A DNA stretch of 64,000 nt from an uncultured Candidatus Binatia bacterium (GCA_965116085.1 OZ220487.1:1787185-1851184); one strand, 5' to 3'. Counted from the stretch's first letter, positions 35,308 to 63,184 are shown. The notes: a model not told the origin generated them from the letters alone. Made by a program: numbers and translations.

Positions 35308-36474
35308 TCAATCAGAAACCATCTGGTTCTTCGAGGTGCTCGACTTCTGCGAATATCTCAGTGCAGGTCGTCGTCGGCGCATTCGAATGACGAAATCGTG
35401 TTCCTGTCTTTTTCCCTTGGTTCCCGGCCTGAAGGCATTTGTTTGCCGGTTCTTGATGTCGGTAGATCTTGGACGATCAGCGAGGCGTATGTCGAAATTT
35501 TGTAGAGCCGAATCAACTCCAGCAATTAGATTGGTCTCAATATCTTCAACACTCAACCTGCCTCCGCCAATTCTGACAGCCATTGTCGCCTCATCGTCGA
35601 GTAGATTCTCCAGGCCTTGCCATGCTTCAATGAGGAAAGCCCAATATCGGGACGAGACATCATGTCGGCCGTCTGGGAATAGGCCCCCTTTGGGACGCTG
35701 GCCTCCACCCAAGAACCAAAGGCGCAGCCACTGATCCTCGCCATAGTCAGTAGTGTCCAAATAGGGCGGTGATGTCAGAACCAATTTCACTCGGCGTCTA
35801 AGGCCAACAAAAACCCTGCCTGCCAGACGGGCATCTGCAAGTTTAGCTCGTCCCGCTTGTTTTGGGATACCCTGATTGAAACGAAACCCGACTTGGTTCA
35901 GGAGGATTTCAAAAACGTCTCTCTCCGGCGCCTTGTACCCGTGCCTCCGCCACCACCGGATCGAGTATGCGGGTTTTGTAGAAATTGTGCGTGGCATCCG
36001 ATTTGAAAAGCAATTGGCCGATTTGTGCGACTCGCCGTGCAGGCACCCAAGCGCCATTGCGGCGACAAACCGATCAACTTTCCTTGAAGTCCAATTCAGT
36101 TCGGAGCGAAGGAAGAGAATTTGCTTGAGCGTACCAATGGAAAAGCAATACTCAAAAAAAGGTTCATCCAAGTTTACTTCAACAGAGGTGTGGTCAAACT
36201 TCCGAGCGAGTTCCACTATCCGCCGCCTGACATTTTGTGGCGCAGGTGGATCAGCCTTGGCACCCGACACACACGCAGCAACCGGATTGATATCTGTTCC
36301 GTATGCGGGCCGACCAAGAAGGAGGCTTTCAAAAATAGTCGTTCCGCGGCCAGAGAATGGATCGAATACTATTTCGCCAGGTTCGGTATATGCCAGTACG
36401 TATTGTTGGACGAACTCCGGGGGAAACATAGCGAAGTATGGGCATATGGAATGAAGTGGATGAACCGCACTCAT
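35308..36474 (-). CDS. DNA methyltransferase (motif I before motif IV; SPPY type, N4-C or N6-A)
   Basis: Carries VFDPFSGRGTT (motif I) and LVLTSPPYLD (motif IV). There is an ATGA overlap with the upstream gene (36471-36474). Confidence 0.8.
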   Translation of the reverse strand: MSAVHPLHSICPYFAMFPPEFVQQYVLAYTEPGEIVFDPFSGRGTTIFESLLLGRPAYGTDINPVAACVSGAKADPPAPQNVRRRIVELARKFDHTSVEVNLDEPFFEYCFSIGTLKQILFLRSELNWTSRKVDRFVAAMALGCLHGESHKSANCFSNRMPRTISTKPAYSIRWWRRHGYKAPERDVFEILLNQVGFRFNQGIPKQAGRAKLADARLAGRVFVGLRRRVKLVLTSPPYLDTTDYGEDQWLRLWFLGGGQRPKGGLFPDGRHDVSSRYWAFLIEAWQGLENLLDDEATMAVRIGGGRLSVEDIETNLIAGVDSALQNFDIRLADRPRSTDIKNRQTNAFRPGTKGKRQEHDFVIRMRRRRPALRYSQKSSTSKNQMVSD

Positions 36475-38685: not shown

Positions 38686-39800
38686 TCAAGGGAGCTTCGG
38701 CAGCCCGAGTTCGGACAAAAACACGTTGTGGGGTTGCTTTGCCTTGGTGATCTTGTCTTCCAGCGCTTCAAGCACGCGGTGCGTTCCGGCAAGATCAACC
38801 TCTTTTTCGGCCCCGGCGATGCTGACATAACGGGCGATGTTGAGATTGAAGCCCTTTTCTTCGATCTCATCCACTGCAACGCGCCGCGAAGCGGTCTTCT
38901 TCCTTGCGAAACCGCTAGGTTTCGACGATATCTGCGATATGGTCCCCGGTCAGTTGATTTTGACGTTTGCCCTTCTTGAAGCGGCCCGGCCCTGCCGCGT
39001 TGATGAACAGGACATCGTCGTGTTTCCTGCACCACTTCAGAACGAGGAGGCAAACCGGTATTCCGGTCGAAAAGAAAAAGCTCGCGGGCAAGCCGATGAC
39101 CGCATCGATGTGGCCGTCCTTCAGGAGCCTGGTCCTGATCTTCTCCTCCGCCCCGCCGCGGAACAAAACGCCGTGTGGCTGGCTGGTCGCCAGGGGGAGC
39201 CTTCCTGCTTCAGGTAGTGGAAACCGTGGAGCAGGAAGGCGAAATCGGCGGGCAGACCTGGAGGTGAGGCCGCAGTTCCTGAAACGGGCGTCCTCGCCGA
39301 GGGTTTCCGACGGACCCCAGCGATAGCTGAAAGGCGGATTGGCGACCACGGCATCGAAGCGCGGCATTCTGGCCGGGTGCGCTTCCCTCGGCATGTCCCA
39401 GTCATTGGTCAGCGTATCGCCGTGAAAAATCTCGAACTCCGTGTCCCTGACCCCATGCAGTAGCATGTTCATGCGGGCCAGGTTGTAAGTCGTGATGTTG
39501 CGTTCCTGTCCGTAGATCTTGCCGATGCCGTGCGGGCCGAGCCGGTTTCGCACGTTCAGCAGCAGCGAGCCGGAACCGCAGGCGAAATCGAACACGCTGT
39601 CGATATGATCCTTCCTGCCCAATGTCGGGTCCTGACTGTCGAGGGCGACAATCTCCGACAGCAGGATGCAGGAAATCTGTTGCGGGGGGTAGAACTCGCC
39701 CGCCTTCTTGCCGGACCCGGCCGCGAACTGGCCGAGTCAGGTACTCATGGACATCGCCCAGCGTATCATTGTCTGCCGAAAAACCGACAAGGCCCCTGGC
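38686..39800 (-). pseudogene. hsdM: Type I R-M methyltransferase subunit HsdM, multiply frameshifted and 5'-truncated
   Basis: Carries GEFYPPQQIS, FDFACGSGSLLL, VVANPPFS and a C-terminal EEKGFNLNIARYV, spread across at least three frames. Confidence 0.8.
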
Positions 39801-43744: not shown

Positions 43745-45076
43745 CTAGCTTCTTTCAATCGCCTCGGTTTTGAAGCTGAAACTGCAGATTCGCGCGGTTG
43801 CGGCCTCCATCACTGAACCGTGGATGAATTCAGGGAAATCTTTCGGCAGCGAAGCTTCGAGGCGCGAGAATGCCTCTTCCGCCGCGTTTGCAATTTGCTC
43901 GATCGCGTCGGGGACAAGCGTTTTTGGCAGGCCGGCTTCTATCCCTGTCTGGATAAAATGCCGGGGATGAATATTGGTGAATCGGTAGTGGCGGTTCTTG
44001 CCGACCGACATGGCCAGCTTCATCTGCTTGCGATTGATCTGATTGCTATCGAGGCTCGGCTGTGCGGTCAGCACATCGTAGAGCGGTGTCAGATGAAAGC
44101 TGCCGCCCGGGCCGAGATATATGCTGAAGTTTTTGGCGTGGCCGTCCGTTGTGCCGAGCAGCCAGAATAGCAACTGCGCCTTGACGAAGACCATATGATC
44201 TTTTGCCGGCGTGTCGCTGCCTTTGAGAAGATCAAGGATCGTGACCATGCCGGGACCGCCGTCACTTTGGTATTTCAGTGGAGGGGGTACCGACAACGCC
44301 TGACAGCAATCTTCTTGCGGCAATCGCAGCAGCCGGCCATCTCTTGTCCAGCGACGATCGAAACGCTTGATGACGAGCGCCTTCGTTTCTCCGAAGGTTT
44401 TGATCTCGGCTTCGTTCACCGGAAGGCCAAAAGCCTCAATGAATTTGAGGCAGTAAAATTCGTTCTCCACGCTATTTGATAGATCGACTCCATTCGGCAA
44501 CTGACCGATCTGCGTTTTGAACAGATGCGTGGTTGGCGTCGTGCCGTGAGGCTTGATCCATTTGTCGTCATGCCAGAGGAGGGCGGTCTTTTCCTGTGCG
44601 CCCGCCACCGATATGCGAAACTCGTCGTCACGGTTCAGGCCCAACGGTGCTTGCGTCAGACTGCGAAGCAGCCGGTCTATGGCCTCGTCATCGACGACAT
44701 CGCCTTCGATCTTGCCGGTGACGTCAATCTCTTCATCGCCATCGGCTATGAATTGCAATGCCCCGACACAATCCCGGCCAATCGCAGCAAGCAGACTGTA
44801 GGCATCGGTTCTGCGGGCTCCGACCTTTTCGGCTACGCGGCGACGCAGCGCATAAGAGTCCGGTAGCAGGTTCTCGAAGACCGCGGCAACGGATTCGCCA
44901 TGGAAGGGCGTCTCGCGGAGAGGGAAAGAAAGGGAGACCGGTATGGCATGCTCCCATTCCAGCCAGCTTTCTTCATACTGAAAGCCGACCGCGCCACTTG
45001 ACGCTCTGGTCAGATGGCCGACCAAGCGGTTGTTCAGGAAAACTCGCAGCCGTGGACGTTGACGATGGCGTGGCAT
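43745..45076 (-). CDS. hipA: HipA-family serine/threonine kinase toxin
   Basis: Carries LRVFLNNRLVGHL, SVAGAQEKTAL, GHAKNFS and LTPLYDVL. ATG 45076 overlaps the hipB stop by 1 nt. Confidence 0.9.
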   Translation of the reverse strand: MPRHRQRPRLRVFLNNRLVGHLTRASSGAVGFQYEESWLEWEHAIPVSLSFPLRETPFHGESVAAVFENLLPDSYALRRRVAEKVGARRTDAYSLLAAIGRDCVGALQFIADGDEEIDVTGKIEGDVVDDEAIDRLLRSLTQAPLGLNRDDEFRISVAGAQEKTALLWHDDKWIKPHGTTPTTHLFKTQIGQLPNGVDLSNSVENEFYCLKFIEAFGLPVNEAEIKTFGETKALVIKRFDRRWTRDGRLLRLPQEDCCQALSVPPPLKYQSDGGPGMVTILDLLKGSDTPAKDHMVFVKAQLLFWLLGTTDGHAKNFSIYLGPGGSFHLTPLYDVLTAQPSLDSNQINRKQMKLAMSVGKNRHYRFTNIHPRHFIQTGIEAGLPKTLVPDAIEQIANAAEEAFSRLEASLPKDFPEFIHGSVMEAATARICSFSFKTEAIERS

Positions 45077-45327
45077 CAAAAGATGTCCTCGATGGCGTCT
45101 GCATGGGCTTTCGAGCGGGGCACGATTCTGAATTCCAGATCGAGCGCGGCGAGGATCGCTAGGATGGTTTCCAGCTTCGTGGCTGGATTACCTGTCTCGA
45201 TCAGGGAAATCGTCTCCTGCCGCAAACCGGCGATGTTGCCGAGTTCCGTCTGATTGAGGGCCCGCTTTTTGCGGGCGCGTTGTACGATGTTTCCGATCTG
45301 CTTCGGATTGCGTGCTAAATCTGCCAT
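45076..45327 (-). CDS. hipB: HipB-like XRE-family HTH antitoxin
   Basis: 83 aa with RKKRALNQTELGNIAGLRQETISLIETG. It lies immediately upstream of hipA. Confidence 0.85.
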   Translation of the reverse strand: MADLARNPKQIGNIVQRARKKRALNQTELGNIAGLRQETISLIETGNPATKLETILAILAALDLEFRIVPRSKAHADAIEDIF

Positions 45328-45926: not shown

Positions 45927-46987
45927 ATGTCGAGCGTCTTTCTTCTTCCGGCCCGTGAGCGGGATGTTCGTCGGGGAGCCTCCTGGAGACGCCGGGGGTT
46001 CCTCCCGGTGAGCCTTCCGGTGACACAGCACAATGCATTGTTCCCGGCGCTGGTCTCCGAGCCAGCCCGCGCCGCCGTGCTGCTCGCGGAACACTTGCCG
46101 CCAGAGGTAGCCGCTCTCCTCGACCCCGAGATCCCGCCCGAGGCGGTCGAAGGCAGCTTCGGCGACGAGGCCACCGCGCGGACCCAGTGCGACGAGCTCT
46201 TCCGGGCCAGGCTGAGGAGCGGTCACGATGCGCGCCTCTATGTGCTGCTCGGACACAAGAGCCGGGTCGACGCCGACACGCCGCTCCATCTCCTGAAATA
46301 CATGGTCAACATCAGGCGCCGTGAGATCGAGGACGGCGCCGCCGGGGACAGGCTGCCAATGATCGTCCCGCTGGTTTTCTACCACGGCCGGGGCCGCTGG
46401 ACGGCGGCGCGCCCGGTGTCGGGGATGATCGACGCGCCTGGGGAGTTGGAGCCGTTCGTCAGGGAGTTTGCCTATGTGGTGCACGATCTCGGGGGGAGAT
46501 TGCGCCCCGCCGGCTGTCGGTCTCGCCCGAGGTACGGGCTGGGCTCTGGCGCTCAAGGTTGTGCATACCGAGGAGATTCCGCCGGATCTTCTCGACCAGA
46601 TGACGGGCGGACCGGTTGCGGGAGCGCGTTCGAGCGTCATCTGGTGCGCTACATTGCCGAGCGCATGAACCTGACGCCGCCGTTGCTGGAGGCGTCGCTG
46701 CACCGGACGAAGCCGGATCGCCGGGAGGCGCTGATCGGCACGGTGGCGCAAGCCTGGATCGAACAGGGAATCGAGAAGGGAATCGAACGAGGTCGGAAGG
46801 AGGGCCGGAGACAAGCCTTGGCGGAGCTTCTTCGTCAACTGGCGCTGCGCTTCGGGGATGTGCCGGATGCGTCCGCGAACGGGCCCGCGACGCGTCGGCA
46901 GCCGAACTGGAGGCTTGGGCGGAGGCGGTGCTGGTGGCCGCGAGTCTCGGCGAGGTGCTGGCCGCCGAGGAATTGCCGGGCAGATGA
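45927..46987 (+). pseudogene. Rpn-family (YhgA-like, PD-(D/E)xK) recombination-promoting nuclease with local frame disruptions
   Basis: Carries HNALF, LLGHKS, PLVFYHGRGRW and ALIGTVAQAWIEQGIEKG. The segment 46491-46625 is readable only by passing through all three frames. The C-terminus ...AAELEAWAEAVL... is in another frame and ends at 46987. Confidence 0.75.
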
Positions 46988-47044
46988 CGAGATCGTGCGG
47001 ACCGTGTGCGCGTTGCGGCGGGAGCCGGCAATGCACCCGAACCG

Positions 47045-47155
47045 GGTCGCAAGCCGGCCTCGACGCGGCGACGGTCGGCGGCCTACACGGAGGTGGCGCT
47101 CACCCCATTGCGTTGGGAGGTCGCAAGCCGGCCTCGACGCGGCGACGGTCGGCGG
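47045..47155. repeat. Two perfect 37-bp direct repeats separated by 37 bp
   Basis: GGTCGCAAGCCGGCCTCGACGCGGCGACGGTCGGCGG occurs at 47045-47081 and 47119-47155. Confidence 0.9.
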
Positions 47156-47387
47156 GGCCATCATGGCGAACGCATGCCTGCCGCGGCGGGCCCGGTTATC
47201 CGGCATGCTTGCGGATCTGGACCGGCTGCGGGCGCCGGAGACCGGCAACGATTCGGCGGCCTGCGCGCAGAACCCCGCCCGCCGCTGAAGCGGATCGGGA
47301 CGGCATGTTCATGTGTCGTCGGACAGGGCAGCCTGTGGGTTTAGGGTCGGTGATGTCTTTTGACGGACAGCCTCTACCTGCCAGCGC

Positions 47388-49691: not shown

Positions 49692-50141
49692 TCACGCCCC
49701 CGCAATTCCATTCTCGGGAGAGTGGATTTCAGCCATGCTTCGCACTGGTCAAGGATCTCTTCAACCGGGAGGGATGTGCACCCCGTCAACGCGCACTCCC
49801 AGACGAACCCTCTGCGCCAGCCCAGATTGGCAAGGGCTTGTCGACTTTTATATCGCGCTCGCGATTACCGGCTATTTTTTCCTGCCAGAATCCGGTCTGG
49901 GTCGAAGGGAGCTGGAACAGATGGCAGTCATGTCCGTGCAAGAAGCAGCCATGGGCGAACAACACGGCATGCCACTTCGGGAAAACAGGTCAGGCTTGTC
50001 AGGCAAGGTCTTGTCGTGAAACCGGAAGCGGAAACCCGTAGAATGAAGACCGCGCCGCAGCACCAGCTCTGGCCGGGTGTTTTTCCCCCTTATACCGGAC
50101 ATCATCCTGCTGCGTATCTCCGGTGTGACAATATCAACCAT
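49688..50141 (-). pseudogene. vsr: Very-short-patch repair endonuclease Vsr, two frameshifts
   Basis: Carries TPEIRSRMMSGIRGKNTRPELVLRRGLHSTGFRFR, then FAHGCFLHGHDCHLF, then LANLGWRRGFVWECAL, in three frames. Confidence 0.8.
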
Positions 50142-51415
50142 GTGCTGCTGACCGTCGTGCGGGGACTTGTGGAGGAATAACCGTCACAGGAGTGGCTTTC
50201 CGGCTTTCCGCCAGGATAGTGACCAGATTCTGGCTGGCCTTGGCTACGAATTCGACAACCGGAACGACGACGGAATTGCCGAACTGGCGATAGGCCTGGG
50301 TGTCCGAAACAGCAATGCGCCAGTGCCGGTTGCCACGGTCAAAGCCCATGAGACGGGTGCATTCCAGTGGTGTCAGCCGCCGGGGTCGCTTGCCCGGCTG
50401 GTCGATCAGTATTTCGGAACCGTCCTTGTAATAGCGGGTCGAAAGGGTCCTGGCCACATCGTCAGGTCCGAACAGGCTGTAGCCGAAGCCGTTACCGGCG
50501 GCACGGTGCTTTTCCTTGTATTTCTGAAGATAGTTCCAGAGATTTTCGGTGAGGGTATATTTCGGATCAACCTCGTCATGAGGCTTGAGGATGCTACCAA
50601 GTTTTGGCCCGGAACCCGATGGCGGCACTTCCAGCGCATCAAAATCAAAGCCGGCCGGTTCCCTGAAGCCCACAATGAAAATGCGCTCCCTTTTCTGGGG
50701 CACCCACGGCGCCGCACTGATCACACGATGCTGAATGTGATAACCCAATTCGTTTTTCAGCACGTTCAGGATCGTTGCAAATGTGCGCCCCTTGTCGTAG
50801 TTCTCAAGGTTTTTACATTCTCCAGCACGAAAGCGGTCGGCCGGTGGTGCGCAATGATCTGGGCCGTATCGAAGAACAGCGCACCTTGTGTGTCGCACAG
50901 GAAGCCGTGGGGACGGCCGAGCGCATTTTTCTTGGAAACGCTGGCAATTGAGAATGGCTGACAGGGAAAGCCGACAAGCGGAAGATCATGTTCCAGAACC
51001 AGTCCGGGACTCTGCGAGAACTCCCTGATGTCACCATTGATCGGGTGATTGTCGGGAAAGTTCAGCGCGTATGATTTCTGGCAATTGGCATCCCATTCAG
51101 AAGTAAAGACACAGTGCTCGCCGATACTCTCGAAGCCCAGTCGCAAACCCGCCAATGCCTGCAAAAAGGTCGATGAATGTAAAGCACGGCTGTTCCATAT
51201 GGGCTGATTCAAGCCGTTTCCTGGCTGAATCCTTCAGTATGCGGATTGCAAGGCGACTGGGTTCACTCTTGCCTTCCTCGTAACGGTAGACGGTGCGCGG
51301 TGTCACCTCCGGAAGATCAGCTGTCTCTTCGAGGGTCAGCCCTGCTCTTTCTCGAAGTCGTGTGAACTCCGTTTTGGTACCGCGCCCGGTGTCTCCGAAT
51401 CATATATCTGGTCAT
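50134..51415 (-). pseudogene. dcm: HTH-fused DNA (cytosine-5) methyltransferase, at least two frameshifts
   Basis: Carries an XRE-like N-terminus (LTLEETADL..VTPRTVYRYEEGKSEP), FIDLFAGIGG, GFPCQPFS, ENVKNL, QKRERIF, RRLTPLECTRLMGF and GNSVVVPV, spread over different frames. Confidence 0.85.
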
Positions 51416-51449: not shown

Positions 51450-52913
51450 TCAAGTAAATGTTCTTTCTTTGTTCTCATACAAAAAGCTACCGTCCACAAC
51501 GTGATGCTTCATGAGATACGACGGTTTCAGATAAGATCGGAAATATGCATTTCCGCCGTAAAAATAGGGATTGCACGATCGGCTTTTACGACTTCTGCAG
51601 ACAGGTACGGAAAGTACTGTAGCTATTTTAAGCGCGGGCCTTTTTGGCGGAGTGCTTGGTAGCGCAGCCGCTGGTCTTAAGCGACGAGCCGCTCGCCGAT
51701 TGCGGCAAGAAGAAGATCGGCTTGTTGCTGATATGGCTAGGATACGCGGTGTTGCAGCCACCCCAGCGCCAACCACCATCCCACCGCGCACTACGGTTCT
51801 CACTGAGGGCAAAGCCCGCAACATGTCGGGACGCACTACAAATGCAAAAACTGTTCGTGCGTACGCAAGCGGCACTGCATGAAAAGTGGCTAAAAATGCA
51901 TAAAGTATGTTCGGGAGCCAAAACAATGAATGGATTTGAAGAACACCCGCAGATGCCACAAGCGTATTCGCAGAAAGTCCTGCAGGATTTGGGAGTGATC
52001 GAGGCAATCGCTCAACTGCATCGACTCGCACTGCACAACATCGATGAAGCTGCCGATGCTCGTGGTGTATTCTTGGTACGTACAGGACGGCCGGAATTGC
52101 AGGGGGGGTAGGTGCCCGGTACATGCAAGCAAATGGCAGACCATCTGGCGAAGTGCTTCCGAGAGTCTTGGCAAATCGCAGCGCGGCCGAACCAAAGAAA
52201 AGCTCCTCGCGCGCTTCCGGTTGAACACTCGGTGGAGCGTTCACATGATCATATGGTGTGACCGGATTGGCCGTTACGGCCTCCACCCATGCCGCTCCGC
52301 CTTTGCGGTTTTCGATCCTAAAATCGGGTGAGGGATGTGGCTGTTCCACTAGCAAACCCTGTGCGCGAAAACTCGCCAGCAACTGCGCTTCCCAAAGCCT
52401 CGTGTGGAAGTTGCCTGTCTGACAATCTCCGGCCCAGTTCTTGTCCGGATTGGGCATCGCCAAATAAAGCTGATTGAGCGTCCAGGCCGCCACGTGAGGC
52501 GACGGCGTGCTCAACGCGCGGAACACGGTGCTCGGTTCGCGGTTGCCAACGTCGTGGAGCGCCGGTCGAGGGGCCGTATTTGCTGGAAGCGGTTCGTTCT
52601 GCTGATCAATATGGAGAAACCGCTTCAATTCGTCCATGGCAGCATCCCGTGACGCGATACCGGTCTTTGTCGCAACCTCGACCCATACGCCGTCAACCCG
52701 ACGCCGTATGACCAGAATACCAATGTCCGCTGTTTCCACATGTCGGGTGATGACGCCGCAAGCAATACCGTCTTCGCTTTGCCATGCTCCAATAGGTGGT
52801 CGCATACCGAAACCGTGACCGCGAGGCAGAGCAAGTGCATAGAGATCGAAAGTGACCGCGGCAGCAGCTTTGGCGCGTCGCGGCGTTCGTACTCTTGGTT
52901 CATTTGGACACAA
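51450..52913 (-). pseudogene. Hypothetical protein with a PD-(D/E)xK-like core; C-terminal half probably out of frame
   Basis: The first roughly 250 aa look protein-like (SPDFRIENRKGGAAWVEAVTANP). The remainder is an A/R/P/S-rich, shadow-like sequence. Confidence 0.35.
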
Positions 52914-53849
52914 ACTCCGGCCAGCTATGAGGCTGTTGGTTGAGAATTATGCGAACCACTTTCTGCTCAAGCGCACGTTGCAGAGCTTGGGTGAAGTTGG
53001 TCATATTGCTGACTACAGATTCGCGCCTAATCGCATGCCGCCAGTTGATTAGCTCGCCTTCCTGCAGTGACCAGTTCAGCAGGTGAACCAGGGCCATATG
53101 ACCGAACATCCATACCGTCATCTTCTCCGGCGACGAATTGCATCTCGACATGAGACTCTGAATGGACTTGATGTTCCGACAAGTCCCATGTCGTAAAGAG
53201 CGTCGTGACATCGTCATCCAAGGCGTCTGTGAAACCCACCTTGTCGACCCGCATCTGCCATTGTTCGTTCAATCCTTCGTCTGTCTCTTCTGATGCCAGG
53301 AGTTTCTCCTTTTTGAGCCGAAGGTGAACACCTGCACCTGGTACGATTTTGTACGCAACATCGCCTGCGAGGACACCGAGCGGATTTTCTCTCATCGCTG
53401 CTTCAAAGCGGATGTTGAAGTTCTTCTTCGTCTTGGTCAGATGCCGAGCCTCAAAGAGTGTCCAAATACCCAGATATTTCCACGCAATAAGCAACGGCAT
53501 CTTCAAGACATCCGAATAGGTCTGCAATCGTGCAAGGTAATCAGGCCTGAATGAAAGGGTCGGAGTTTTCTTCGATTTGACCTCAATGATCGCAGGCCCT
53601 GAATTCTCATACAAAGCCAGGAGGGTCGGGGACCTAGTAGTCTGCTCGCGATTGGCGCGGTGCATGGTGCTGGTCGAGCTTGTGGACCAGACATGTCTTG
53701 CCAAGCCAGCTGCAAACGGCAATGAACTCGTCTTCCGCAGGCAGCCCACGGTCCAGACGCCGAACCTGTTCAGCGATCTGACTCGGATCGGCTTCCCGAC
53801 CAAGCTCCGCGAGCGCCTCCTGTATCAGCCTTTCGTCATCGTCTGCCAT
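52900..53849 (-). pseudogene. PD-(D/E)xK nuclease-like protein, two frameshifts
   Basis: Starts MADDDERLIQEALAELG...CSWLGKTCLVHKLDQ, shifts near 53640, continues LLALYENSGPAIIEVKSKKTP...LLIAWKY, then shifts near 53110. Confidence 0.45.
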
Positions 53850-53901
53850 CTAGGCCTCCCCTGCCGTGCTCGTGGCTTGCCACGAATATCGTACATATCG
53901 C

Positions 53902-53997
53902 TACGCGCAATAATCGTTGCGCCTACAAATGATTCTTGCGCCTAGACTTGAAAGTTGCGCGTAAACCAGCATAGTTGCGTCTACAGCATACACGCAA
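53902..53997. promoter_or_regulatory. Iteron-like array of six TTGCG(C/T)NTA sites between divergent genes
   Basis: Four direct copies at 53917, 53936, 53955 and 53975 (spacing 19/19/20 bp). One inverted copy flanks each side (53902-53910 and 53989-53997). Confidence 0.6.
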
Positions 53998-54005
53998 GAA
54001 AGACG

Positions 54006-55403
54006 ATGATGGCCAACAAAATCCCGCAAGATGCCCTCAAGGAGCTGCTCGATGTCGTTGCGGACCATCCGGACGGCATCGCTGCGCCCAGCATCGCAGA
54101 AAGACTGACCGGTCATGTTCCACGCCGAACCCTGCAATACCGGCTAAAACAGCTTGTCACCAATGGACATCTGCAGATGGAGGGCAGCGGTAGATGGACG
54201 CGTTACCGTCTGGCGACCGCCGACGGTTTGACCGTGGCTGAGCAAGATGATCAGGACTTCGACTACGGTGATCTTATTGCCTTGTCGGACGATGCAAAGG
54301 CCATTCGAGACTATGTCCTGCAGCCCGTCGCAGCGCGCAAGCCAGTCGGATATAATCAGGACTTTCTCGGACGCTATCAGCCCAATACGACATTCTATCT
54401 TCAAGAAGAGGATTGCGAACGGTTGGACCGGCTCGGTAAGTCGAAGACTTCCACACAACCAGTTGGAACCTACGCAAAACTCATTCTCAACCGCCTGTTG
54501 ATTGATCTTTCCTGGAACTCTAGCCGCTTGGAAGGCAACACCTACTCGCTCCTGGATACGAAGCGTCTGATTGAATTTGGAGAAGAAGCCACCGGACGGG
54601 ACCACGTTGAGGCACAAATGATCCTCAATCACAAGGATGCCATTGAGTTTCTGGTGGGTTCTGTCGACGAGATTGACTTCAATGCCTACACCTTTCTCAA
54701 TCTGCATGCGCTTCTGTCGAACAACCTGTTGGCCGATCCGGCCGCTTCCGGGCGCCTGCGCTATATCGCAGTTGGCATAGAAAAATCGGCGTTCCACCCC
54801 CTCGAGATGCCACAACGCATTGAAGAGTGCTTCAAGCAGCTTCTTGCCAAGGCATCAGAAATCGAAGACCCGTTCGAGCAGGCCTTCTTCGTGATGGTGC
54901 ATATCCCTTATCTTCAACCCTTCGATGATGTGAATAAGCGCGTCTCGCGTCTCGCCGCCAACATGCCTCTCATTCGAAGCAACCTCTCTCCATTGGCGTT
55001 CACTGATGTGCCTCAGCGCGCCTATACGGAAGCTATTCTGGGTGTCTACGAACTGAACGATACGGCGCTTCTCAAGGAAGTTTTCCTCTGGGCCTATGAA
55101 CGTTCTGCGGCCCAATACGCGGCCGTCCGGCAATCTTTGGGAGAGCCGGATCCTTTCCGCTTGAAATATCGGGCGGAGATCCGCAACGCCGTCGCCCAAA
55201 TCATTCGCTCCACGGTCGGGCGTAAAGAAGCTGCTGACCAGATCATGAAATTGGCCGAAATTGCGGTTGCGGCAGAAGATCGAGATACCTTTGCGGCAGT
55301 TGTCGAAGACGAGCTTCTCCGCCTCCACGATGGAAACTTCGCCAGATATCAGCTCCGGCCATCCGAGTTCCAGGAGTGGAAAAGCGTATGGACGAAATCT
55401 TGA
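54006..55403 (+). CDS. wHTH + Fic-domain protein with a non-canonical Fic motif
   Basis: N-terminal RRTLQYRLKQLVTNGHLQMEGSGRWTRYRL. The Fic core reads IPYLQPFDDVNKRVSRL where the canonical motif is HPFx(D/E)GN(G/K)R. Start set at ATG 54006. Confidence 0.75.
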   Translation: MMANKIPQDALKELLDVVADHPDGIAAPSIAERLTGHVPRRTLQYRLKQLVTNGHLQMEGSGRWTRYRLATADGLTVAEQDDQDFDYGDLIALSDDAKAIRDYVLQPVAARKPVGYNQDFLGRYQPNTTFYLQEEDCERLDRLGKSKTSTQPVGTYAKLILNRLLIDLSWNSSRLEGNTYSLLDTKRLIEFGEEATGRDHVEAQMILNHKDAIEFLVGSVDEIDFNAYTFLNLHALLSNNLLADPAASGRLRYIAVGIEKSAFHPLEMPQRIEECFKQLLAKASEIEDPFEQAFFVMVHIPYLQPFDDVNKRVSRLAANMPLIRSNLSPLAFTDVPQRAYTEAILGVYELNDTALLKEVFLWAYERSAAQYAAVRQSLGEPDPFRLKYRAEIRNAVAQIIRSTVGRKEAADQIMKLAEIAVAAEDRDTFAAVVEDELLRLHDGNFARYQLRPSEFQEWKSVWTKS

Positions 55404-57139
55404 CCGGAAGCTCGTATCCTGTCGTAGAGGCCGATGACTTTGCCCGTCGATTTTCGATGCGGTCAGGCAGCCTTATCTGGTTCTTGGGTGCCGGCACGTC
55501 CGCATCAGCGGGGATTCCAACCGCATGGGACATGATCTGGGAGTTCAAGCAACAGCTTTACGTCAGTCGGCGGCGTGTCGCTTTGAAAACGGTCGCAGAC
55601 CTCTCAAATCCAGCCGTCCGAAGGCAAATTCAGGATTTCATAGCGAGCCAAGAAGCTTTTTCAGAGCCGGATTCGCCCGAAGAATACGCGGCTCTCTTTG
55701 AGGCGGTCTATCCAAGTGAAGCAGACCGTCGGACATACATTGATGCCAAAATCACTGGCGCCAAACCATCCTACGGGCACGTGGCACTGGCAACTCTGAT
55801 GAAAGCGGGCCATACCAAACTTGTCTGGACGACGAACTTCGATCCGCTCGTCGCCGATGGCTGCGCAAGAGTTTTTGGCGGCACTGGCAACCTGACAACA
55901 GTTGCATTTGACGCGCCTGACATCGGCCGACAGGTCATAAATAGCGAACGCTGGCCTGCGGAAGTCAAACTGCATGGCGATTTTCGGTCACGGCGTCTCA
56001 AAAACACTGGAGACGAGCTTCGCCAGCAAGATGCGACCTTAAGAGATCTTCTTGTCGGCACATGCGTGCGTTCTGGCCTAGTCATTGCGGGGTATAGCGG
56101 GCGCGACGACTCGATCATGAACGCTTTAGAGGAAGCGCTTGAGCATGCTTTCCCGTTTCCTAGAGGCCTTTTCTGGCTCCATCGTGGTGCCCATGATCCT
56201 CTCGACAGAGTGTGCAGTTTTCTCTCGGCTACATCAAACAAGGGGGTCGATGGCGGTCTCGTTCGAATTGAAAACTTCGACGAAGCCCTGCGCGATCTCG
56301 TGCGCCTCATTCCCGACCTTGATACAAAGCAGCTCGACGAGTTCGCGTCGGAGCGCTCTGTCGTTTCATCGCCGCCACGTATCTCTGGCAGCCGAGGCTA
56401 CCCGGTTATTCGATTGAACGGGTTGGAAGTGAAATCCTGGCCGACGATCTGCCGGCTAGTTGAGTGTGAAATTGGCGGATACAAGGAAGTTGCCGAGGCC
56501 ATTACCGCAGCAGGGGTTGATGTTCTGGCAACACGATCAGCGAAGGGCGTTCTTGCATTCGGTGCGGACACCGATGTGCGCGCTGCGCTCGCAAATGTCA
56601 CTATCAAGGAATTCGATCTGCACGAGATCGAAACGCGCCGCCTCCGGTATGACAGCCAAGAACGAGGCTTGCTGAAGCAAGCACTTTCGCGAGCTTTGAC
56701 CAGAGAGCATGACCTGACACTAAGGCATCGCCGGAGCGTCGATTCTCTTGCGCCCGCCGATGTGACAGATCAAAAATGGATTCCTCTGAAACGCATTGTT
56801 GGCGGTTTGTCAGGCAATGTGCCGGGACAACTCGATCTGACCTGGGAAGAAGGCGTTGTCGTGCGGCTCGAGTGGGCTAACGAAAAGTTGTGGCTCGTCT
56901 TTGAACCGCGAACGCTTTTGAAGGGCATAACCGAAGTAAACCGCGCTGCAGCCACGGATTTTTCACGTGAGCGCAGTGTGAAGCGATACAACAGACCGCT
57001 CAACGATCTCACATCCTTCTGGGGTGATCTGCTTTCTGCGAGCGGCAAAGACCTTCGCGCCCTGAACGTAAGTACCGGGGTCGACGCTGTCTTTTCCCTC
57101 GGAACAACTACTGCATTTTCAAGACGGTCGCGCCCATGA
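55388..57139 (+). CDS. SIR2-APAZ protein (short-pAgo partner)
   Basis: Carries [22 protein letters not shown] and VKLHGDF, with a roughly 300-aa C-terminal extension. AGGAG lies 11 nt before ATG 55388. There is an ATGA overlap with the pAgo gene. Confidence 0.85.
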
Positions 57140-58560
57140 CGAGTCAGATTTCGCCCCATCTCTGGTTTCCCGAACCTCATCTCTCTTTCCATCCCGATCA
57201 TGTCGAAGATGTAGATATTCATCCATTGAGAGGGCTATTGAGGCATGGTCCCTATTCGGCTGGCCTTGTGCCCGATCCCATTCGCGTGGCTACAATCTCG
57301 CCGTTTGTAGAAAGTCAGCGGCTGTATGACTTCATGAAGGCCTTAAACAGCAAGTTTGAACCGTCCGAGCGACGCGATTACCTGCCAACTTGGCCGGGCT
57401 TCCGTAGCGTGTTCAATCTGAACATGCGCGCCGCTGCAACGGATTGCCATATTCAGTTGGACGAGCGGCTGGGCCCTGAAATGGCCGATGCCAGCGCACC
57501 ACATGTCGTTCTGTCTTCCCGACTTACACGGGCTTTGCAGACTTTGGATGCCGTGCGTCAGCAGTTCGACGTCATTTTCATTTACGTGCCGGAATCGTGG
57601 TCTAGCGGCTTTGTAGGGGGCGAAGGTGAGGACTTCGACCTTCACGATCACCTGAAAGCAGCAAGTGCGGCCCGGCATTTGCCGATCCAGTTGGTAAGAG
57701 AGGACCGAGCGCTCGCCTATCTCCATAGAGCAAGTGTCATGTGGCGCATCGGCTTGGCACTCTACGCCAAGGCGGGTGGCATTCCATGGAAATTGGCTGA
57801 TTCTGATCCCGAAACAGCTTACGTTGGCATCTCCTACGCAGTTCGGCCGGTCGAGACCGATCAACCGCGCTTTGTTACGTGCTGCAGCCAGGTCTTCGAC
57901 GGAGATGGTGCAGGGCTAGAGTTCGTTGCCTATGATGCCAACGATGTTGAGGTGCAGCGCGACAATCCATTCTTGTCTCGCAACGAGATGTTCCGAGTCA
58001 TGACACGTTCTCTCGATCTCTATCGTCGCAGACATGCCGGGCGCACGCCGCGGCGGGTTATCGTGCACAAGTCGACAGAGTTTAAGCCTGATGAAATCGA
58101 CGGCTGCATGGAGGCATTGCACTTGTGTGAGGCCGTTGACTTGGTACAGGTCGTTGAGGATGTCGCTTGGCGAGGTGCCAAAATAGATCCGCCGAAAGCG
58201 TCCAACCGGAAGGGAACGCCTGCGGGGTACCCAGTCGACCGAGGTTCATTGTTAGGTCTTGGACCACGGGAGTGCCTTTTGTGGATGCATGGAAATGTCA
58301 CCGGCATCAACAACTCCGGTTCCTACTTTCAAGGTGGGCGAAGCACGCCCAGACCAATCAGGCTTGTGCGTCATGCAGGGCATGGCCCTTGGGACGATAC
58401 GGCACGGTCTGCCTTGGCGCTATCCAAGATGAATTGGAATAACGACGGCTTCTACGATCAGCTCCCAGTGACGATGAGTTACGCAAAGATACTCGCAAGG
58501 GTAGTCAAACGGATGCCTGGACTTGGCAAGACACCCTACCAGTTCCGGTTTTTCATGTAG
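57136..58560 (+). CDS. Short prokaryotic Argonaute (MID-PIWI, predicted catalytically inactive)
   Basis: Carries [21 protein letters not shown] sits where active PIWI has GxDV. The C-terminal tail is [17 protein letters not shown]...YQFRFFM. Confidence 0.85.
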
Positions 58561-58644
58561 CCGCGATGTGTGGAGTTCATCGCAGCCTATTATGGAGCGA
58601 AGATGGACAAGAAATCGGGAACATCGAAGGACGCGGCTGACAAG

Positions 58645-59385
58645 CTAGGGCCTGTTAACACTATCGCAACGCATTGATGATGAGGGCGAAGACGATGAAT
58701 CCAAGGAAGAGCACGGCGCGTTGCTCGAAGCGCGTGAAGAGGCGGCGGAACCCCTTCAATCGACGCAACACCCGCGCGATTTCGTTGCGCCGCTTGTCTA
58801 GCTCACGGGCGGACGCCCGGTCCCTCAGCACCGCGGGAGGAGCGGGGGGCGGACCCAGGCGAGTCAGCAATTGGCGGCCCGCCGGGGCGGCGGGGGCGGG
58901 CCCGGGCGAGCGCGCGCAGGCGAGCGCCGGGCGAGCGTCCGCGGCACCCCTAGGCATCGTGGGGGTCCAGCCGCCTCGGGAGCGGCCGAGGGATTGAGGA
59001 CCGGTTGTGTGCGCGCCCCCGGGCCGGCGGGATGGACCTTGGCGATGGTGCTGTCGAGCGACCGGGCCTCCCGCTTGAGGCGCACGAGCTGTTCGCGTTG
59101 CAGACGCTCGAAGACCCGGGCGAGCCCCCCCGGTTTGCGACCAGCGGTGCAGCCGGGGGGAGAGGGGGGCCAGGTGCCAAAGCGGGCCGGCAACCCGCGC
59201 CATGTACAGCCCTGCTCGGCGACATACAAGATGGCGTTGAGCACGTGGCGATTGGAGAGGCGGACATTGCCGCGCGGCACCGGGAGAGGATGCGCGATCC
59301 GGTCGTATGGAGCTTGCGTGCGGTCCCTACAGCCAGGAGACCAGAATCATGCAGAATCATCCACATGAGTGTGAACAGGCCCTAG
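58645..59385 (-). mobile_element. Degenerate IS5-family (IS427-like) element with both ends
   Basis: The ends are CTAGGGCCTGTTAACAC and GTGTGAACAGGCCCTAG. The transposase pieces LSNRHVLNAILYVAEQGCTWRGLP, KVHPAGPGA, GRSRGGWTP and KRRNEIARVLRRLKGFRRLFTRFE lie in several frames. Confidence 0.8.
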
Positions 59386-60394
59386 GCAAGACCATTCGCC
59401 GCAAGACACGTCGTCTGCATTCACCCGAAGAAAAGACGGGATCGTTTTGGCAGGCCTGCGCGGTGAGGAGAGTATTGCCGCGCTATGCAGACGTGAGGGG
59501 ATCAGCGAGAGTCTGTATTCTTTCTGGTCGAAGGAATTCCTCAAGGCTGGCAAGCAGCGCCTTGCTGGAGACACGGCTCGGCAGGCGACCAGCCCCGAGG
59601 TCAAAGATATGCGATCAGAGTCTGCGGCCTTGAAGGAAATGGTGGCCGATCTGACCCTGGAGAACCGCCTGCTCAAAGCGGTGAAGTACACCGATGAGAA
59701 GCAGTATTTTATCTCGCAGTCATCGGCTTGCCGCATCCTGAAGGCGGAAGACCTGATCATGGCCCCCGGGCACATCGTGATCAAGGCGGCCGATGAGTTC
59801 AAGGATAACGCCACGAGGCCAAACGAGCTCTGGCAGACGGACTTCACCCATCTCAAGGTCATCGGCCGGGGCTAGTTCTACCTGTCCACGATCCTGGACG
59901 ACCACAGCAGGCACATCATTGCCTGGAAGCTTTGCACGACGCTGAAAGCCCAGGATGTGACCGATACCCTCGATCCGGCGTTGGAAGCTTCTGGCTGCAA
60001 CAGCACGACCGTCGCCGCCAAACCAGGGTTGCTGAGTGACAATGGCTCCTCCCATGTCACAGGTGATCTGGCAAAATACCTGGATGGGAAGGACATGGGT
60101 CACGTCCGTGGCGCGCCTCATCACCCTCAGACCCAGGGCAAGATCGAACGTTGGCGCCAGACGATGAAGAACCGCGTCCTGCTTGAGTATTACTTCTTGC
60201 CTGGCGACCTCGAAGCGCAGACCGGTGACTTCGTCGAATACTGCAACAATCGCCGATACCACGAGAGCCCGGGCAATTTAACGCCCGCCGATGTTTACTT
60301 CGGGCGCGCCGAACAGATCCTGAAACAGCGAGAGGAGATCAAACGAAAAACCATGCTCAAATGGCGCTTGCGCCACCAAAAGAAAAACGCATGA
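59386..60394 (+). pseudogene. IS3-family transposase (orfAB) with internal deletion and in-frame TAG
   Basis: Carries RRKTRRLHSPEEK, GEESIAALCRREGISESLY, WQTDFTHLKVIGRG*FYLSTILDDHSR (TAG 59873) and HPQTQGKIERW...RYHESPGNLTPADVYFGR. Confidence 0.8.
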
Positions 60395-60396
60395 AC

Positions 60397-61059
60397 TCAA
60401 TTAAGGATGAGCCAGAGCCTCCAAACAAAAACGTGCTCTGCTGTCCCAAAATATCTGACGACGGACAGCATCGGGTCATCAACGGTGTCGGGATACCAAA
60501 ACCCGTCCATCAGGGCGCCGGCGCTGTTCCAGGTCGAACCACCATGGACGAGTTGGTTGCGCAGCACATAAAGCCGGTCGAAGACGAAGCTGAGCATCCG
60601 TTTTGTGTCGCCGCTCTGGACCGCCCGTGCGAACGCGCGCGAGGACGTTTTGAATCGCTCCTCCCAGTCCTCGAACCCGGTTATCTCGTTATGGTGCTGC
60701 CAAAAGGGGTTGAACACGTGGCGATTGTCCATCAGCAACTGTACCGGCCCGGAGAAGCGCTGCCAGATCGCTCCGTAGATTCGACGTTTTTGGTCCAGGG
60801 CGACAGGCGCCCAAAGAAATCGACGAAGGCGGTGCGTTCGCCCGGCTGGATCGCCTGGAACTCCCCCCTCGTCGGCATAGGCGGCGTTGAACGCGATCCA
60901 CAGGAAGATAAATCGTGCATCGTCGTCGTCACCGTACGCCTCGGCACGGCCGATCCAGCTGATGGAGCGATGAATGCGAAGACCCATAGTTTCAGGAAAC
61001 CCGTCGCGGATCGTTCGTTGTTTGGTTTTCAACTCTGCGTGCGTGAGGTCAGTTTTCAT
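60397..61059 (-). CDS. HEPN-domain protein (RNQLVH motif); 3' end abuts or overlaps the IS3 remnant
   Basis: Carries RIHRSISWIGRAE and YVLRNQLVHGGSTW (Rx4H). The start was taken at MKTDLTH. The last roughly 40 codons look atypical, so the gene may be truncated. Confidence 0.55.
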   Translation of the reverse strand: MKTDLTHAELKTKQRTIRDGFPETMGLRIHRSISWIGRAEAYGDDDDARFIFLWIAFNAAYADEGGVPGDPAGRTHRLRRFLWAPVALDQKRRIYGAIWQRFSGPVQLLMDNRHVFNPFWQHHNEITGFEDWEERFKTSSRAFARAVQSGDTKRMLSFVFDRLYVLRNQLVHGGSTWNSAGALMDGFWYPDTVDDPMLSVVRYFGTAEHVFVWRLWLILN

Positions 61060-61084
61060 CTTCAACCCTGTTTGGTCCTTTGCC

Positions 61085-62054
61085 TTATGGGAGCGCGTTG
61101 AAATCGCTCCTGCGGTGGTGTTCAACCATGATGCGTAGCCCCTCTGGAGCGATCACCTCGACATTGTCGCCCCATTGGTGGAGATGCCACGCCATCTCGA
61201 GCCACCCCGATGCGTGAAATCGCACGATGAGACTGCCATCCTCCTCATGGTCGACGATCTGCTTTGGATGGAAGCAGAATTCGGCGGCGCGGGCAGCAGC
61301 TTCAGGGGTGAAGCGCCAGACTACCTCTCCATATTGCGCCGGATCCTGGTAGACGCCGAAGGACTGAGCCGAATAGGCGTCCAGCGAGAAGCTAAAACTT
61401 TCATCCAATGCTTGGACGCTGTGGATCCGGTCCAGCCGGAAGTTCAGCATGTCATCGCCCCGAGCTGGCTGGCGCGCGACGAGATAGCTGCGATGCCCCA
61501 ACAAGAGACCGTGCGGCTCGATGATCCGTTCGGGGGCACCTTCAGCCCCGTATCGCAGCCGCAGACGAAAAGGGCCACGTAGTCCCTCAATCACTGCATC
61601 AAGTACTGCCGGCGACAGATTTACCCGGGGCCAGGCCGGGTGACTGATCCCATCGTCATCAGCACCGCTTCGACATCGGCCTCGGTCCGAAGCGCGTCTT
61701 TCGGTGTCAGGCGCGCGAGCAGCCCGTCGCGCAAACCTCGAGAGCCGCCGCGTGACGCAGCCGTCCATCGCCTCGGACTGTCCTGCTAGCCATTTGCAGC
61801 GCCTCGACCGCCGTTTCCTGGCGCGGTCGGAGCCGGTCGAGTATCGGGTCAGCGATGCGCCACCGGCGTCGTCGATCTGGACCATCCACGGCTTCGACAT
61901 TGGCGAATACGGTCTCTAGCGCGTCGGTCATTCTCTGCGCGGTGCGATGAGACACCGCGAACTCCTCGCATATCTCATCGAGCCCGATTCCAGCCCGTCT
62001 GATGGCAGCCCGTCGTGCAAGCCTGATCAGATCCTGAGCCTTGGCGAACGACAT
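61085..62054 (-). pseudogene. HTH-WYL-WCX transcriptional regulator (CapW/BrxR-like), two frameshifts
   Basis: N-terminal HTH (GLDEICEEFAVSHRTAQRMTDAL). WYL core (RIIEPHGLLLGHRSYLVARQP...LNFRLDRIHSV). The frames change near 61733-61740 and at CCCGGGG 61624-61630. Confidence 0.7.
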
Positions 62055-62114
62055 ACTATATTCCTGGCCCCAATCCGTGACAGATATTGACACCCACGCA
62101 CGCTATTGCTGGAG

Positions 62115-62176: not shown

Positions 62177-63184
62177 ATGCGTGATGTTGATGGTCGAATC
62201 AACGGTGCTGCGATCATTATGCCTGACGGCTCCATAGTGGCTCGGGCGGTGTCCGAAAACGGTCAATTTCATGCGTTCAGATCCGTCAATGTCGTCGGAG
62301 ATAGCATTCGCTTTTGGACGGAGGGAGCGTGCGCTGTTACGACGGCGTATGGGGGAAAACTGTCCCAGACTTTGGGACGAGGAACATTGGATCGATTGCG
62401 GGCGATGAAAGCTGGGGTGGTTGGTTGCTCTGGAACCGGTAGCATATTGATCGAACTCCTCGTACGGAATTGCGTGGGAGAGCTGGTGATTGTCGATAAT
62501 GATGTATTGGAGGAGAAGAACCTTAATCGAATTGTGAATGGCACAATGGCTGATGTCAGAAGTAGACGATCGAAAGTACAGGCGATTCGGATGTCGATAA
62601 AGCGAAGTGGTCTTGAGACCAAGGTCGACGCATATGATGCCTTGACGGATTCTCCTGAGGTCGTGTCTGCGCTTGTTGATTGCGACATGCTCTTTGGTTG
62701 TGTGGACTCGGCGTTCGGGCGTTACCATTTGGAGTGCATATCTAGTGCCTATCTGATTCCCTACTTCGATATTGGGGTGCATATAGACGCAGACGGTACA
62801 GGGGATATCAGTGCAGCTGACGCGGTTGCCCACTACGTCCACCCGGACGGACGCGATTTGTTGTCTCGCGGCGCATATCACCTGGACCAGGCAACCGCCG
62901 AGAACTGGAGAAGAACGGATCCGGCCTATTACGCCCGGCAACGCGTTGCCGGATATCTGGCAGCGGTTGGAGAGGAACAGCCCGCCGTTATGTCGGTGAA
63001 CATGCAGGCAGCTTGTATGGCCTTCAACGACTTCGTGGCAAGGTTGCATTCATTTTGGATGGACAAGGACCACGAGTTCGCTACCCAGAGATTTCGACCG
63101 GTCCACGGGAGTTACGAATGCGAAGCGGATAAAGGGAGGCCACATCGCTTGTTTGAACGGTACCGGGGCGCTGGGCGACAATAG
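62177..63184 (+). CDS. ThiF/E1-like adenylyltransferase
   Basis: Carries AGVVGCSGTGSILIELL...LVIVDNDVLEEKNLNR (Rossmann GxGxxG plus the DxD..E..NLNR adenylation signature). A roughly 60-aa N-terminal extension ends in YGG. Confidence 0.8.
   Translation: MRDVDGRINGAAIIMPDGSIVARAVSENGQFHAFRSVNVVGDSIRFWTEGACAVTTAYGGKLSQTLGRGTLDRLRAMKAGVVGCSGTGSILIELLVRNCVGELVIVDNDVLEEKNLNRIVNGTMADVRSRRSKVQAIRMSIKRSGLETKVDAYDALTDSPEVVSALVDCDMLFGCVDSAFGRYHLECISSAYLIPYFDIGVHIDADGTGDISAADAVAHYVHPDGRDLLSRGAYHLDQATAENWRRTDPAYYARQRVAGYLAAVGEEQPAVMSVNMQAACMAFNDFVARLHSFWMDKDHEFATQRFRPVHGSYECEADKGRPHRLFERYRGAGRQ

Follow-up and report, generated by a model that had tools for sequence, protein, structure and literature searches.

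A winged-helix, Gln-variant Fic-like gene with an operator-like repeat array upstream of a SPARSA operon: a candidate autoregulated leader of defence genes

In this study, the structure and genomic associations of a three-gene defence locus were investigated in a 64,000-nucleotide (nt) stretch of DNA from an uncultured Candidatus Binatia bacterium (GCA_965116085.1 OZ220487.1:1787185-1851184). This whole stretch is hereafter called the window, and positions are counted from its first letter. A gene encoding a winged helix-turn-helix (wHTH) and a Fic-like domain lies immediately upstream of a SIR2-APAZ gene and a short prokaryotic Argonaute (pAgo) gene, and the latter two form a SPARSA-type pair (Table 1). 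The comparisons presented below suggest that an autoregulated wHTH/Gln-variant Fic gene leads a SPARSA operon here and, in parallel, a Gabija operon elsewhere, and this arrangement is what is new.

The Fic-like open reading frame (ORF) encodes 465 amino acids (aa) when counted from its ATG, and the frame opens at TTG 53955. Its stop codon lies within the SIR2-APAZ gene, which in turn overlaps the short pAgo gene by the ATGA at 57136-57139, so that both genes form one operon; the order SIR2-APAZ then pAgo is the same in at least 75 related loci. No promoter-like site was found on the + strand between the three genes in a scan of 53700-58800, and a terminator scan returned sites that were not enriched relative to shuffled sequences, with none convincing between the genes. 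As judged from the reading frames, SIR2-APAZ and pAgo are translationally coupled to the stop codon of the Fic-like gene and have no promoter-like site of their own. An earlier, sequence-only reading of the window had described a 465-aa wHTH and Fic protein ending 16 nt inside the SIR2-APAZ frame and had held co-transcription of the three genes to be very likely; its coordinates held, and the overlaps and the lack of an intervening promoter-like site support a tight coupling.

The SIR2-APAZ protein matched the PADLOC profile Aga_SIR2-PNTD1-PNTD2 over its full length (601 bits) and the Pfam family SIR2_2, and showed end-to-end homology to the Sir2 chain of PDB 8in8/8jkz (248 bits, residues 14-578). 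The short pAgo matched PADLOC pAgo_I (658 bits, residues 2-474 against positions 2-457 of the 457-position profile) and was homologous from end to end to the Piwi chain 8in8_C (375 bits). As in SPARSA, the short pAgo consists of MID and PIWI domains with a PIWI inactive by motif, and its partner carries an N-terminal SIR2 domain and a C-terminal APAZ domain. The PADLOC and PDB matches thus agree with the SPARSA-type pair with an ATGA overlap recognised in the sequence-only reading, and the ISYAV that it had noticed in place of the catalytic GxDV was confirmed. The pair looks intact, and guide/target-activated NAD+ depletion is predicted for it, as the TNFD and KLHGD motifs of SIR2 are kept.

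A close comparison is provided by GsSir2/Ago of Geobacter sulfurreducens (PDB 8in8, 8jkz), which resembles the window pair in its two-gene core with overlapping reading frames, its inactive PIWI, the TNFD and HG motifs of its SIR2 and the full-length homology of both proteins. The two-gene GsSir2/Ago operon alone, expressed from PBAD, protects E. coli (bioRxiv 10.1101/2021.12.14.472599). Characterised SPARSA systems are two-gene operons, whereas the window and its closest clade alone have a third, upstream gene encoding a wHTH and a Fic-like domain with a putative operator-promoter of its own. No mention of a Fic partner was found in the short-pAgo papers searched.

Table 1. Genes, motifs and regulatory features of the locus, in window coordinates
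Feature	Position	Strand	Remark
Candidate operator array, six TTGCGYNTA boxes	53902-53997		All matches of the window lie here
Sigma-70-like promoter (predicted), TTGAAA-16 nt-CATAGT	53948-53975	+	Between boxes 3 and 5; consensus match
wHTH and class-II-like Fic-fold gene	54006-55403	+	Gln variant, 'clade D2' motif
N-terminal winged helix-turn-helix, residues 8-69	54027-54212	+	Secondary structure of the model
SSRLEGN, residues 172-178	54519-54539	+	Fits inhibitory-helix motif (S/T)xxxE(G/N)
Fic motif variant QPFDDVNKRVSR	54915-54950	+	His to Gln, Gly to Val, Gly to Lys
Fic-like/SIR2-APAZ overlap, 16 nt	55388-55403	+	TGA 55401-55403, ATG 55388; predicted translational coupling
SIR2-APAZ gene, 583 aa, apparently intact	55388-57139	+	PADLOC, Pfam SIR2_2
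TNFD motif of SIR2	55832-55843	+	Invariant among SIR2-APAZ relatives
KLHGD motif of SIR2	55967-55981	+	Invariant among SIR2-APAZ relatives
Short pAgo gene (MID-PIWI), 474 aa	57136-58560	+	PADLOC pAgo_I, PDB 8in8_C
ISYAV replacing catalytic GxDV of PIWI	57829-57843	+	pAgo residues 232-236

The Fic-like protein and its operator-like repeats

The Fic-like protein scored 39.1 bits against the Pfam Fic family (cut-off 24), which was the only Pfam family reported there. NCBIfam provided no specific family, only a spurious 20-bit match, and the PADLOC matches to SoFic and PDC-S04 arose by domain homology only. The AlphaFold2 model, computed from an alignment of 90 diverse family members (pLDDT 94, pTM 0.82), comprises a winged helix, a linker, a helical Fic core with a flap region and a C-terminal helical domain. 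The top Foldseek matches were FICD/HYPE, C. elegans Fic-1, a FIC-domain protein of Mycobacterium marinum and SoFic; FICD was matched with a probability of 1.00 and a root-mean-square deviation of 3.2-3.8 Å over about 250 columns, which identifies the core as a Fic fold. The structure prediction of the Fic core that had been proposed as a check therefore gave a confident Fic fold, FICD-like by both Foldseek and profile comparison. In the N-terminal winged helix, the modelled helices span residues 8-19, 27-33 and 40-52 and the strands residues 56-59 and 66-69; the recognition helix reads PRRTLQYRLKQLV and the wing GSGRWTRYR, and a Pfam HTH_20 match is precomputed on several homologues.

The Fic superfamily motif HxFx(D/E)GN(G/K)RxxR contains an invariant His, and in Fic enzymes its Asp, Asn and two Arg bind metal and phosphates. 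A profile search of PDB aligned the window motif, QPFDDVNKRVSR, with HPFxDGNGRxxR of FICD; it departs from the superfamily motif at the His, and Asp308, Asn310, Arg312 and Arg315 are kept. The translation confirms the earlier observation that the catalytic His is missing, and the loss of this general base argues against canonical catalysis or AMPylation. The same profile comparison aligned SSRLEGN with the inhibitory helix TVAIEGN of FICD, in agreement with a class II protein, and GRLR in the flap region is conserved in the family.

The family is very large. A word-indexed search gave at least 8000 matches, the best 120 of which were all about 460 aa long with 63-86% identity to the window protein, and an exhaustive search of 50%-identity representatives gave 4087 clusters at E<=1e-3 and 798 at E<=1e-30. 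The best-conserved stretches among 20 close and 90 diverse members were RTLQYRL of the recognition helix (invariant in the alignment), SSRLEGNTYS and LPYLQPFDDVNKRVSRLAAN. Glu176 of the inhibitory helix is at least 90% conserved within SS[RHQK]LEG, which is kept in the family, and Gln at the His position is conserved in at least 90% both of the 90 diverse members and of the top 150 cluster representatives. About 115 of the 117 motifs recognisable in the top 150 cluster representatives read QPFxx[V/G]NKR. Because Gln for His is nearly invariant across thousands of clusters, the variant is best described as a stable family signature and not as decay, and the term 'degenerate' used in the sequence-only reading does not suit it. 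As a separate observation, the triplet NHK at residues 208-210 (54627-54635; MILNHKDAIEF) is near-invariant in the family, whereas FICD does not keep it in the profile alignment; it could mark a functional site particular to this family or, conceivably, a relocated His.

The protein resembles FICD/HYPE and SoFic in its Fic fold, its N-terminal SxxxEG inhibitory helix, the Asp, Asn and two Arg of the motif and GRLR, and differs from them in the replacement of the catalytic His by Gln and of both motif glycines (by Val and Lys). Its wHTH is N-terminal, whereas that of SoFic-type proteins is C-terminal. The Gln motif variant itself is not new, because it was already noted in silico in 2015 as clade D2, with the consensus Qx[F/Y]x[D/E][G/V]NKR in 45 sequences, by Khater & Mohanty (PMC4454073), who held that such proteins may not be catalytically dead. 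QPFDDVNKR of the window fits this consensus exactly. However, clade D2 was described as mostly single-domain and Doc-like, whereas the window family comprises thousands of clusters of multidomain proteins of about 460 aa, with a wHTH, an inhibitory helix and a flap, which are structurally nearest to FICD/SoFic and not to Doc. The Lys at motif position 8 is common to the window protein and the kinase Doc, whose motif is HxFx(D/N)(A/G)NKR and whose Lys inverts ATP binding (PMC4177925).

Six TTGCGYNTA boxes surround the predicted promoter of the Fic-like gene. The outer boxes, 1 (53902-53910) and 6 (53989-53997), are inverted; the four between them are direct and begin at 53917, 53936, 53955 and 53975 with a spacing of about 19-20 nt. 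All six matches of the 64-kb window fall within this 96-nt stretch (about 2.2 are expected per window), and repeat families and inverted pairs were also detected there. The only sigma-70-like site on the + strand of 53700-58800 is the one inside the array. Across the family, arrays contain four to six boxes with a spacing of about 20 nt, at about -101, -90, -70, -51, -31 and -14 relative to the start codon, and the spacers vary among loci except for the TTGA of the -35 element. Members from Alpha- and Gammaproteobacteria, Acidobacteriota, Rhodothermales, Caldilineaceae and other groups have the array, whatever lies downstream. Of 85 Fic-like loci, 75 had at least three TTGCGY hexamers in the 150 nt before the gene, compared with 0 of 67 SPARSA loci without the gene. 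A TA box flank accompanied the wing residue Trp64 in 52 loci, and other flanks accompanied a different residue at this position in 17, with 10 exceptions. We infer that the wHTH binds the boxes, because the array is conserved and the wing residue co-varies with the box flanks; the repeats would then be the autoregulatory operator of the Fic-like gene. They had been called an iteron array, in place of which an operator conserved across the whole Fic-like family is now proposed. The suggestion that the protein could be a regulator whose wHTH acts on the upstream repeats is the one that the comparative data favour.

Association with SPARSA and Gabija

The association with SPARSA was examined from both sides, using 80 metagenomic SIR2-APAZ loci with 55-86% identity to the window protein and the best 80 of at least 598 genome loci of the Fic-like family. 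The six SIR2-APAZ loci closest to the window (66-86% identity) all carried the Fic-like gene immediately upstream. The other 74 (at most 67% identity) lacked it, most of them with enough upstream sequence to show it, and it was likewise missing from two plasmid-borne SPARSA systems that are only distantly related (29-32% identity); no other gene recurred upstream in the SPARSA loci without it. From the side of the Fic-like family, SIR2-APAZ sequence lay directly 3' of the gene in 4 of the best 80 genome loci. Two of these, from Vannielia (L001) and an Acidobacteriota metagenome-assembled genome (L018), have a SIR2-APAZ gene downstream, and the latter also has pAgo, with frameshifts indistinguishable from sequencing errors. 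The other two, from Methylocapsa (L012) and Lichenihabitans (L016), retain only N-terminal SIR2-APAZ fragments of about 80 aa. The Paracoccaceae plasmid pLA6_011 and a plasmid of Sagittula sp. P11 have a five-gene block in common with the window. In total, 11 Fic-SPARSA loci and 4 loci with SIR2-APAZ remnants were found. The linkage is therefore recurrent, which speaks against the refutation envisaged in the sequence-only reading, that of no recurrence in other genomes. Its proposed survey of short-pAgo loci for an upstream Fic-like gene was positive for the closest clade and negative as a general rule.

The linkage is restricted to one lineage but long-lived. The junction between the Fic-like and SIR2-APAZ genes is always a start/stop overlap, of 13-16 nt in the clade of the window and ATGA in the other clade (L091, L092, L018, L012 and L086), and these overlaps are kept through 35-40% protein divergence and in hosts of different phyla. 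The pairwise identities of the Fic-like, SIR2-APAZ and pAgo proteins are highly correlated among the nine complete loci (r = 0.97-0.99, 36 pairs); therefore, the three genes were inherited and transferred as a unit. Intact Fic-like genes adjoin decayed SIR2-APAZ in four loci, namely L012, L016, a Rhizobium rhododendri replicon (L086, NZ_CP117268 360928-361563; SIR2-APAZ residues 5-211 only) and an otherwise solitary-looking gene beside a frameshifted remnant of residues 12-111 (L179, 7414-7712). On this comparison, the defence cargo is repeatedly lost while the Fic-like leader gene persists. SPARSA-linked, remnant-bearing and solitary copies are interspersed in the neighbour-joining tree of Fic-like proteins, a pattern compatible with cargo that was captured once, long ago, and then lost repeatedly.

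The same gene precedes Gabija in three loci. In Reyranella (L023, 8121-11413) and Croceicoccus (L067, 11344-14615), the Fic-like gene and the GajA homologue behind it (249 and 226 bits, respectively) share an ATGA as stop and start, and GajB is next. The divergence between these two loci is similar for GajA (64% identity) and the Fic-like protein (68%). A third locus (L011, 11368-15981) has the same arrangement, except that about 1.3 kb is inserted into GajA, and the Fic-like protein of this locus is the sister of one from a SPARSA-linked locus in the neighbour-joining tree. Other ORFs overlapping the Fic-like stop were not counted as cargo: those on the + strand of L032, L058 and L026 look spurious in high-GC sequence, and those of L051 and L054 look by eye like common genes of metabolism.

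Most copies of the Fic-like gene are solitary, and more than 90% of the sampled family members are without SPARSA. The nearest neighbours in 129 cases belonged to 115 Pfam families, none of which occurred in more than three members, and all-against-all clustering of the ORFs within 6 kb of solitary members gave no recurrent neighbour; these neighbours included a transhydrogenase, a TonB-dependent receptor, an H+-pyrophosphatase, TRAP transporters and insertion sequence (IS) elements. The gene has spread between phyla at 55-60% identity. The gene and its operator would thus constitute an autonomous, horizontally mobile unit that is usually found alone. A relative was carried by 11 of 2.9 million viral contigs, and SPARSA or Gabija by none of those with a relative; a phage origin of the gene was considered unlikely on this count. 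As a general partner of short pAgo, the Fic-like gene does not qualify: it is restricted to the closest SIR2-APAZ clade, also leads Gabija operons and is mostly solitary. It is an accessory leader or regulator, to judge from these comparisons, and not a core SPARSA subunit, because related and characterised systems lack the gene and the GsSir2/Ago pair alone protects E. coli.

Regulatory interpretation and its alternatives

The explanation that we favour on balance, with modest confidence, is that of an autoregulated transcription factor that joins a wHTH to a Fic-derived sensor domain and whose promoter drives the coupled defence genes. The N-terminal winged helix would bind the TTGCGYNTA box array around its own promoter. 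The Fic-fold domain, in which Gln replaces the catalytic His and the nucleotide- and Mg-binding residues, flap and inhibitory Glu are kept, would most likely be a module sensing a ligand or partner and not an AMPylase. SIR2-APAZ and the short pAgo would be expressed from, and controlled by, the operator-promoter of the Fic-like gene; SPARSA would depend on this promoter because its genes are coupled to the Fic-like stop codon and have no promoter-like site of their own. The gene and its operator would have captured defence cargo at least twice, with one SPARSA and one Gabija lineage grafted onto the Fic-like 3' end by translational coupling.

This arrangement recalls BrxR and CapW (wHTH-WYL-WCX; PMC9122601, PMC9122589, PMC11662680) and RptR (PMC12255303), autoregulated proteins with a wHTH and a ligand-sensing domain that are encoded first in their operons and precede different, unrelated defence systems, as the Fic-like gene precedes SPARSA and Gabija. 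The likeness is one of functional analogy, since the Fic-like protein is without WYL and WCX domains (Pfam reports Fic only) and its sensor domain would be Fic-like. Unlike BrxR/CapW-type leaders, most copies of the Fic-like gene are not adjacent to defence genes. A wider proposal, possible but held more doubtfully, is that the Gln-variant wHTH-Fic family is an unrecognised class of transcription factors in which the disabled Fic domain senses a nucleotide, a modified protein or an infection cue, and which together with a multi-box operator forms a portable 'leader cassette' for unrelated abortive-infection systems such as SPARSA and Gabija. If true, it would give toxic systems signal-dependent expression and would be a Fic-fold counterpart of BrxR/CapW. 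No Fic-domain transcription factor turned up in the literature search.

Several observations weigh against the favoured interpretation. The predicted promoter agrees with the consensus at 9 of 12 positions, and matches of this quality are no more frequent in the region than chance would give; the association of Trp64 with the TA flank (odds ratio 35, Fisher p = 6e-9) was calculated with shared ancestry ignored. The conservation of the active site, including the Doc-type Lys, fits an enzyme with altered chemistry as well as a sensor. In Sagittula (L082, NZ_CP021915.1 6702-8088), the Fic-like gene aligns in three pieces (annotated as 384 aa) and SIR2-APAZ and pAgo are full length, so that SPARSA may be expressed without an intact Fic-like protein unless this frameshift is a sequencing or assembly error. 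Finally, simple inheritance could account for the persistence of a linkage that is confined to one clade and secured by an overlap not easily broken.

This last point leads to the alternative that SPARSA hitch-hikes, having landed behind an unrelated or selfish solitary Fic-like gene, with the overlap holding them together and no tie of regulation or function beyond read-through transcription. It is unlikely in our view. In its favour are the predominance of family members without SPARSA, the lack of the gene in SIR2-APAZ relatives of at most 67% identity and in distant SPARSA systems, its survival beside decayed SPARSA in four loci, the possibly broken gene beside an intact SPARSA in Sagittula, and the sufficiency of the two-gene system in E. 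coli. What tells against it is that the start/stop overlap has been held through about 35-40% divergence in hosts of different phyla, that the unrelated Gabija genes are coupled alike in three loci, and that SIR2-APAZ is preceded by no alternative promoter-like site; therefore, any autoregulation of the leader would also regulate the cargo. The view that the protein is an active enzyme of non-canonical chemistry, for example a Doc-like kinase or nucleoside monophosphate transferase using Gln and Lys, and acts as a third component (an effector, an immunity factor that holds the SIR2 NADase in check, or a protein that modifies a host or phage target) is less probable still. The active-site region is the best-conserved part of the protein, the Lys of NKR matches the Doc kinase motif, the flap-region GRLR and inhibitory Glu are kept, clade D2 has been proposed not to be dead (PMC4454073), and Fic-domain defence genes exist (PADLOC SoFic). 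However, practically no family member keeps the general base His, and both glycines of the motif are replaced; no partner or target gene recurs beside the mostly solitary members, close SPARSA relatives and GsSir2/Ago function without the gene, and DNA binding is suggested as a central activity by the wHTH and the conserved operator.

A one-gene module resembling a toxin-antitoxin or abortive-infection system, in which autorepressor, inhibitory helix and Fic toxin are joined in one chain that merely shares islands with SPARSA and Gabija, has little probability. Its autoregulatory architecture and wide transfer between phyla would suit such a module, as would the PADLOC SoFic and PDC-S04 matches and an island in the window with HipA, methylases, a PD-T7-1-like gene and IS elements; but the catalytic His is absent, solitary copies adjoin mostly ordinary and not defence genes, viral contigs yielded only the 11 matches given above, and the PADLOC matches reflect the shared Fic domain only. 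The remaining reading, that the repeats are replication-origin iterons and the protein a Rep-like initiator, was rejected as highly improbable. Direct repeats with a period of about 20 nt do lie beside a winged-helix protein gene, and some copies are on plasmids; nevertheless, the array lies no more than about 100 nt from the start codon and has the predicted promoter inside it, gene and array also occur on multi-megabase chromosomal contigs beside housekeeping genes, the carrier plasmids have their own RepA or replication initiator, and the fold of the protein is that of Fic, not of Rep.

Few regulators of defence systems have been described (BrxR, CapW and RptR). For the question of how bacteria silence NAD+-depleting systems such as SPARSA until they are required, the locus offers a concrete candidate, in which a wHTH protein with a defined six-box operator is coupled to SPARSA in roughly a dozen loci and to Gabija in three. 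It also provides a first biological handle on a very large Gln-variant Fic subfamily that has so far only been noted in silico, and the use of the Fic fold as the sensor domain of a transcription factor, if true, would extend the known roles of the Fic superfamily. If the gene is a mere neighbour, a Fic gene adjoining pAgo should not be annotated as part of the system.

Surroundings of the locus in the window

The G+C content of 34000-58000 is 0.51-0.56, compared with 0.65-0.74 elsewhere in the window. This region contains DNA methylase fragments (35308-36474, 38915-39622), a HipA toxin gene (43745-45079), a YhgA-like transposase gene (45927-47288) and a DEAD-box helicase ORF, and looks like a decaying island of defence genes and mobile elements; no tRNA gene was found in the 64-kb window. 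Two genes of the five-gene block mentioned above, which diverge from the Fic-like gene (52140-53849, - strand), are pseudogenes in the window. Their counterparts on plasmid CP031596 encode a protein of 322 aa and a PD-T7-1-like protein of 475 aa; of the former the window has a homologue broken up among three frames, and of the latter only residues 19-255 are left. The Fic-SPARSA genes beside these pseudogenes are intact. At 50134-51306 on the - strand, a C-5 cytosine DNA methylase is present as two overlapping ORFs in different frames (50134-50898 and 50766-51212), probably a frameshifted pseudogene, and a small HTH-like ORF lies at 51097-51306.

Directly 3' of pAgo (58661-60394) are an IS4/IS5-family DUF4096 ORF and an ORF with an IS3-type integrase core (rve_3), and these IS fragments may mark the edge of the inserted block. 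A WYL-WCX gene (61085-61900, - strand), separate from the Fic-like gene, is overlapped in another frame by an upstream ORF (61707-62093) that is HTH-like by eye, and the two look like a BrxR/CapW-like regulator split by a frameshift. The WYL-WCX gene also overlaps a 242-aa ORF (60397-61125, - strand) and faces a ThiF/E1-like gene (62177-63184, + strand) with a PADLOC E1-E2 match.

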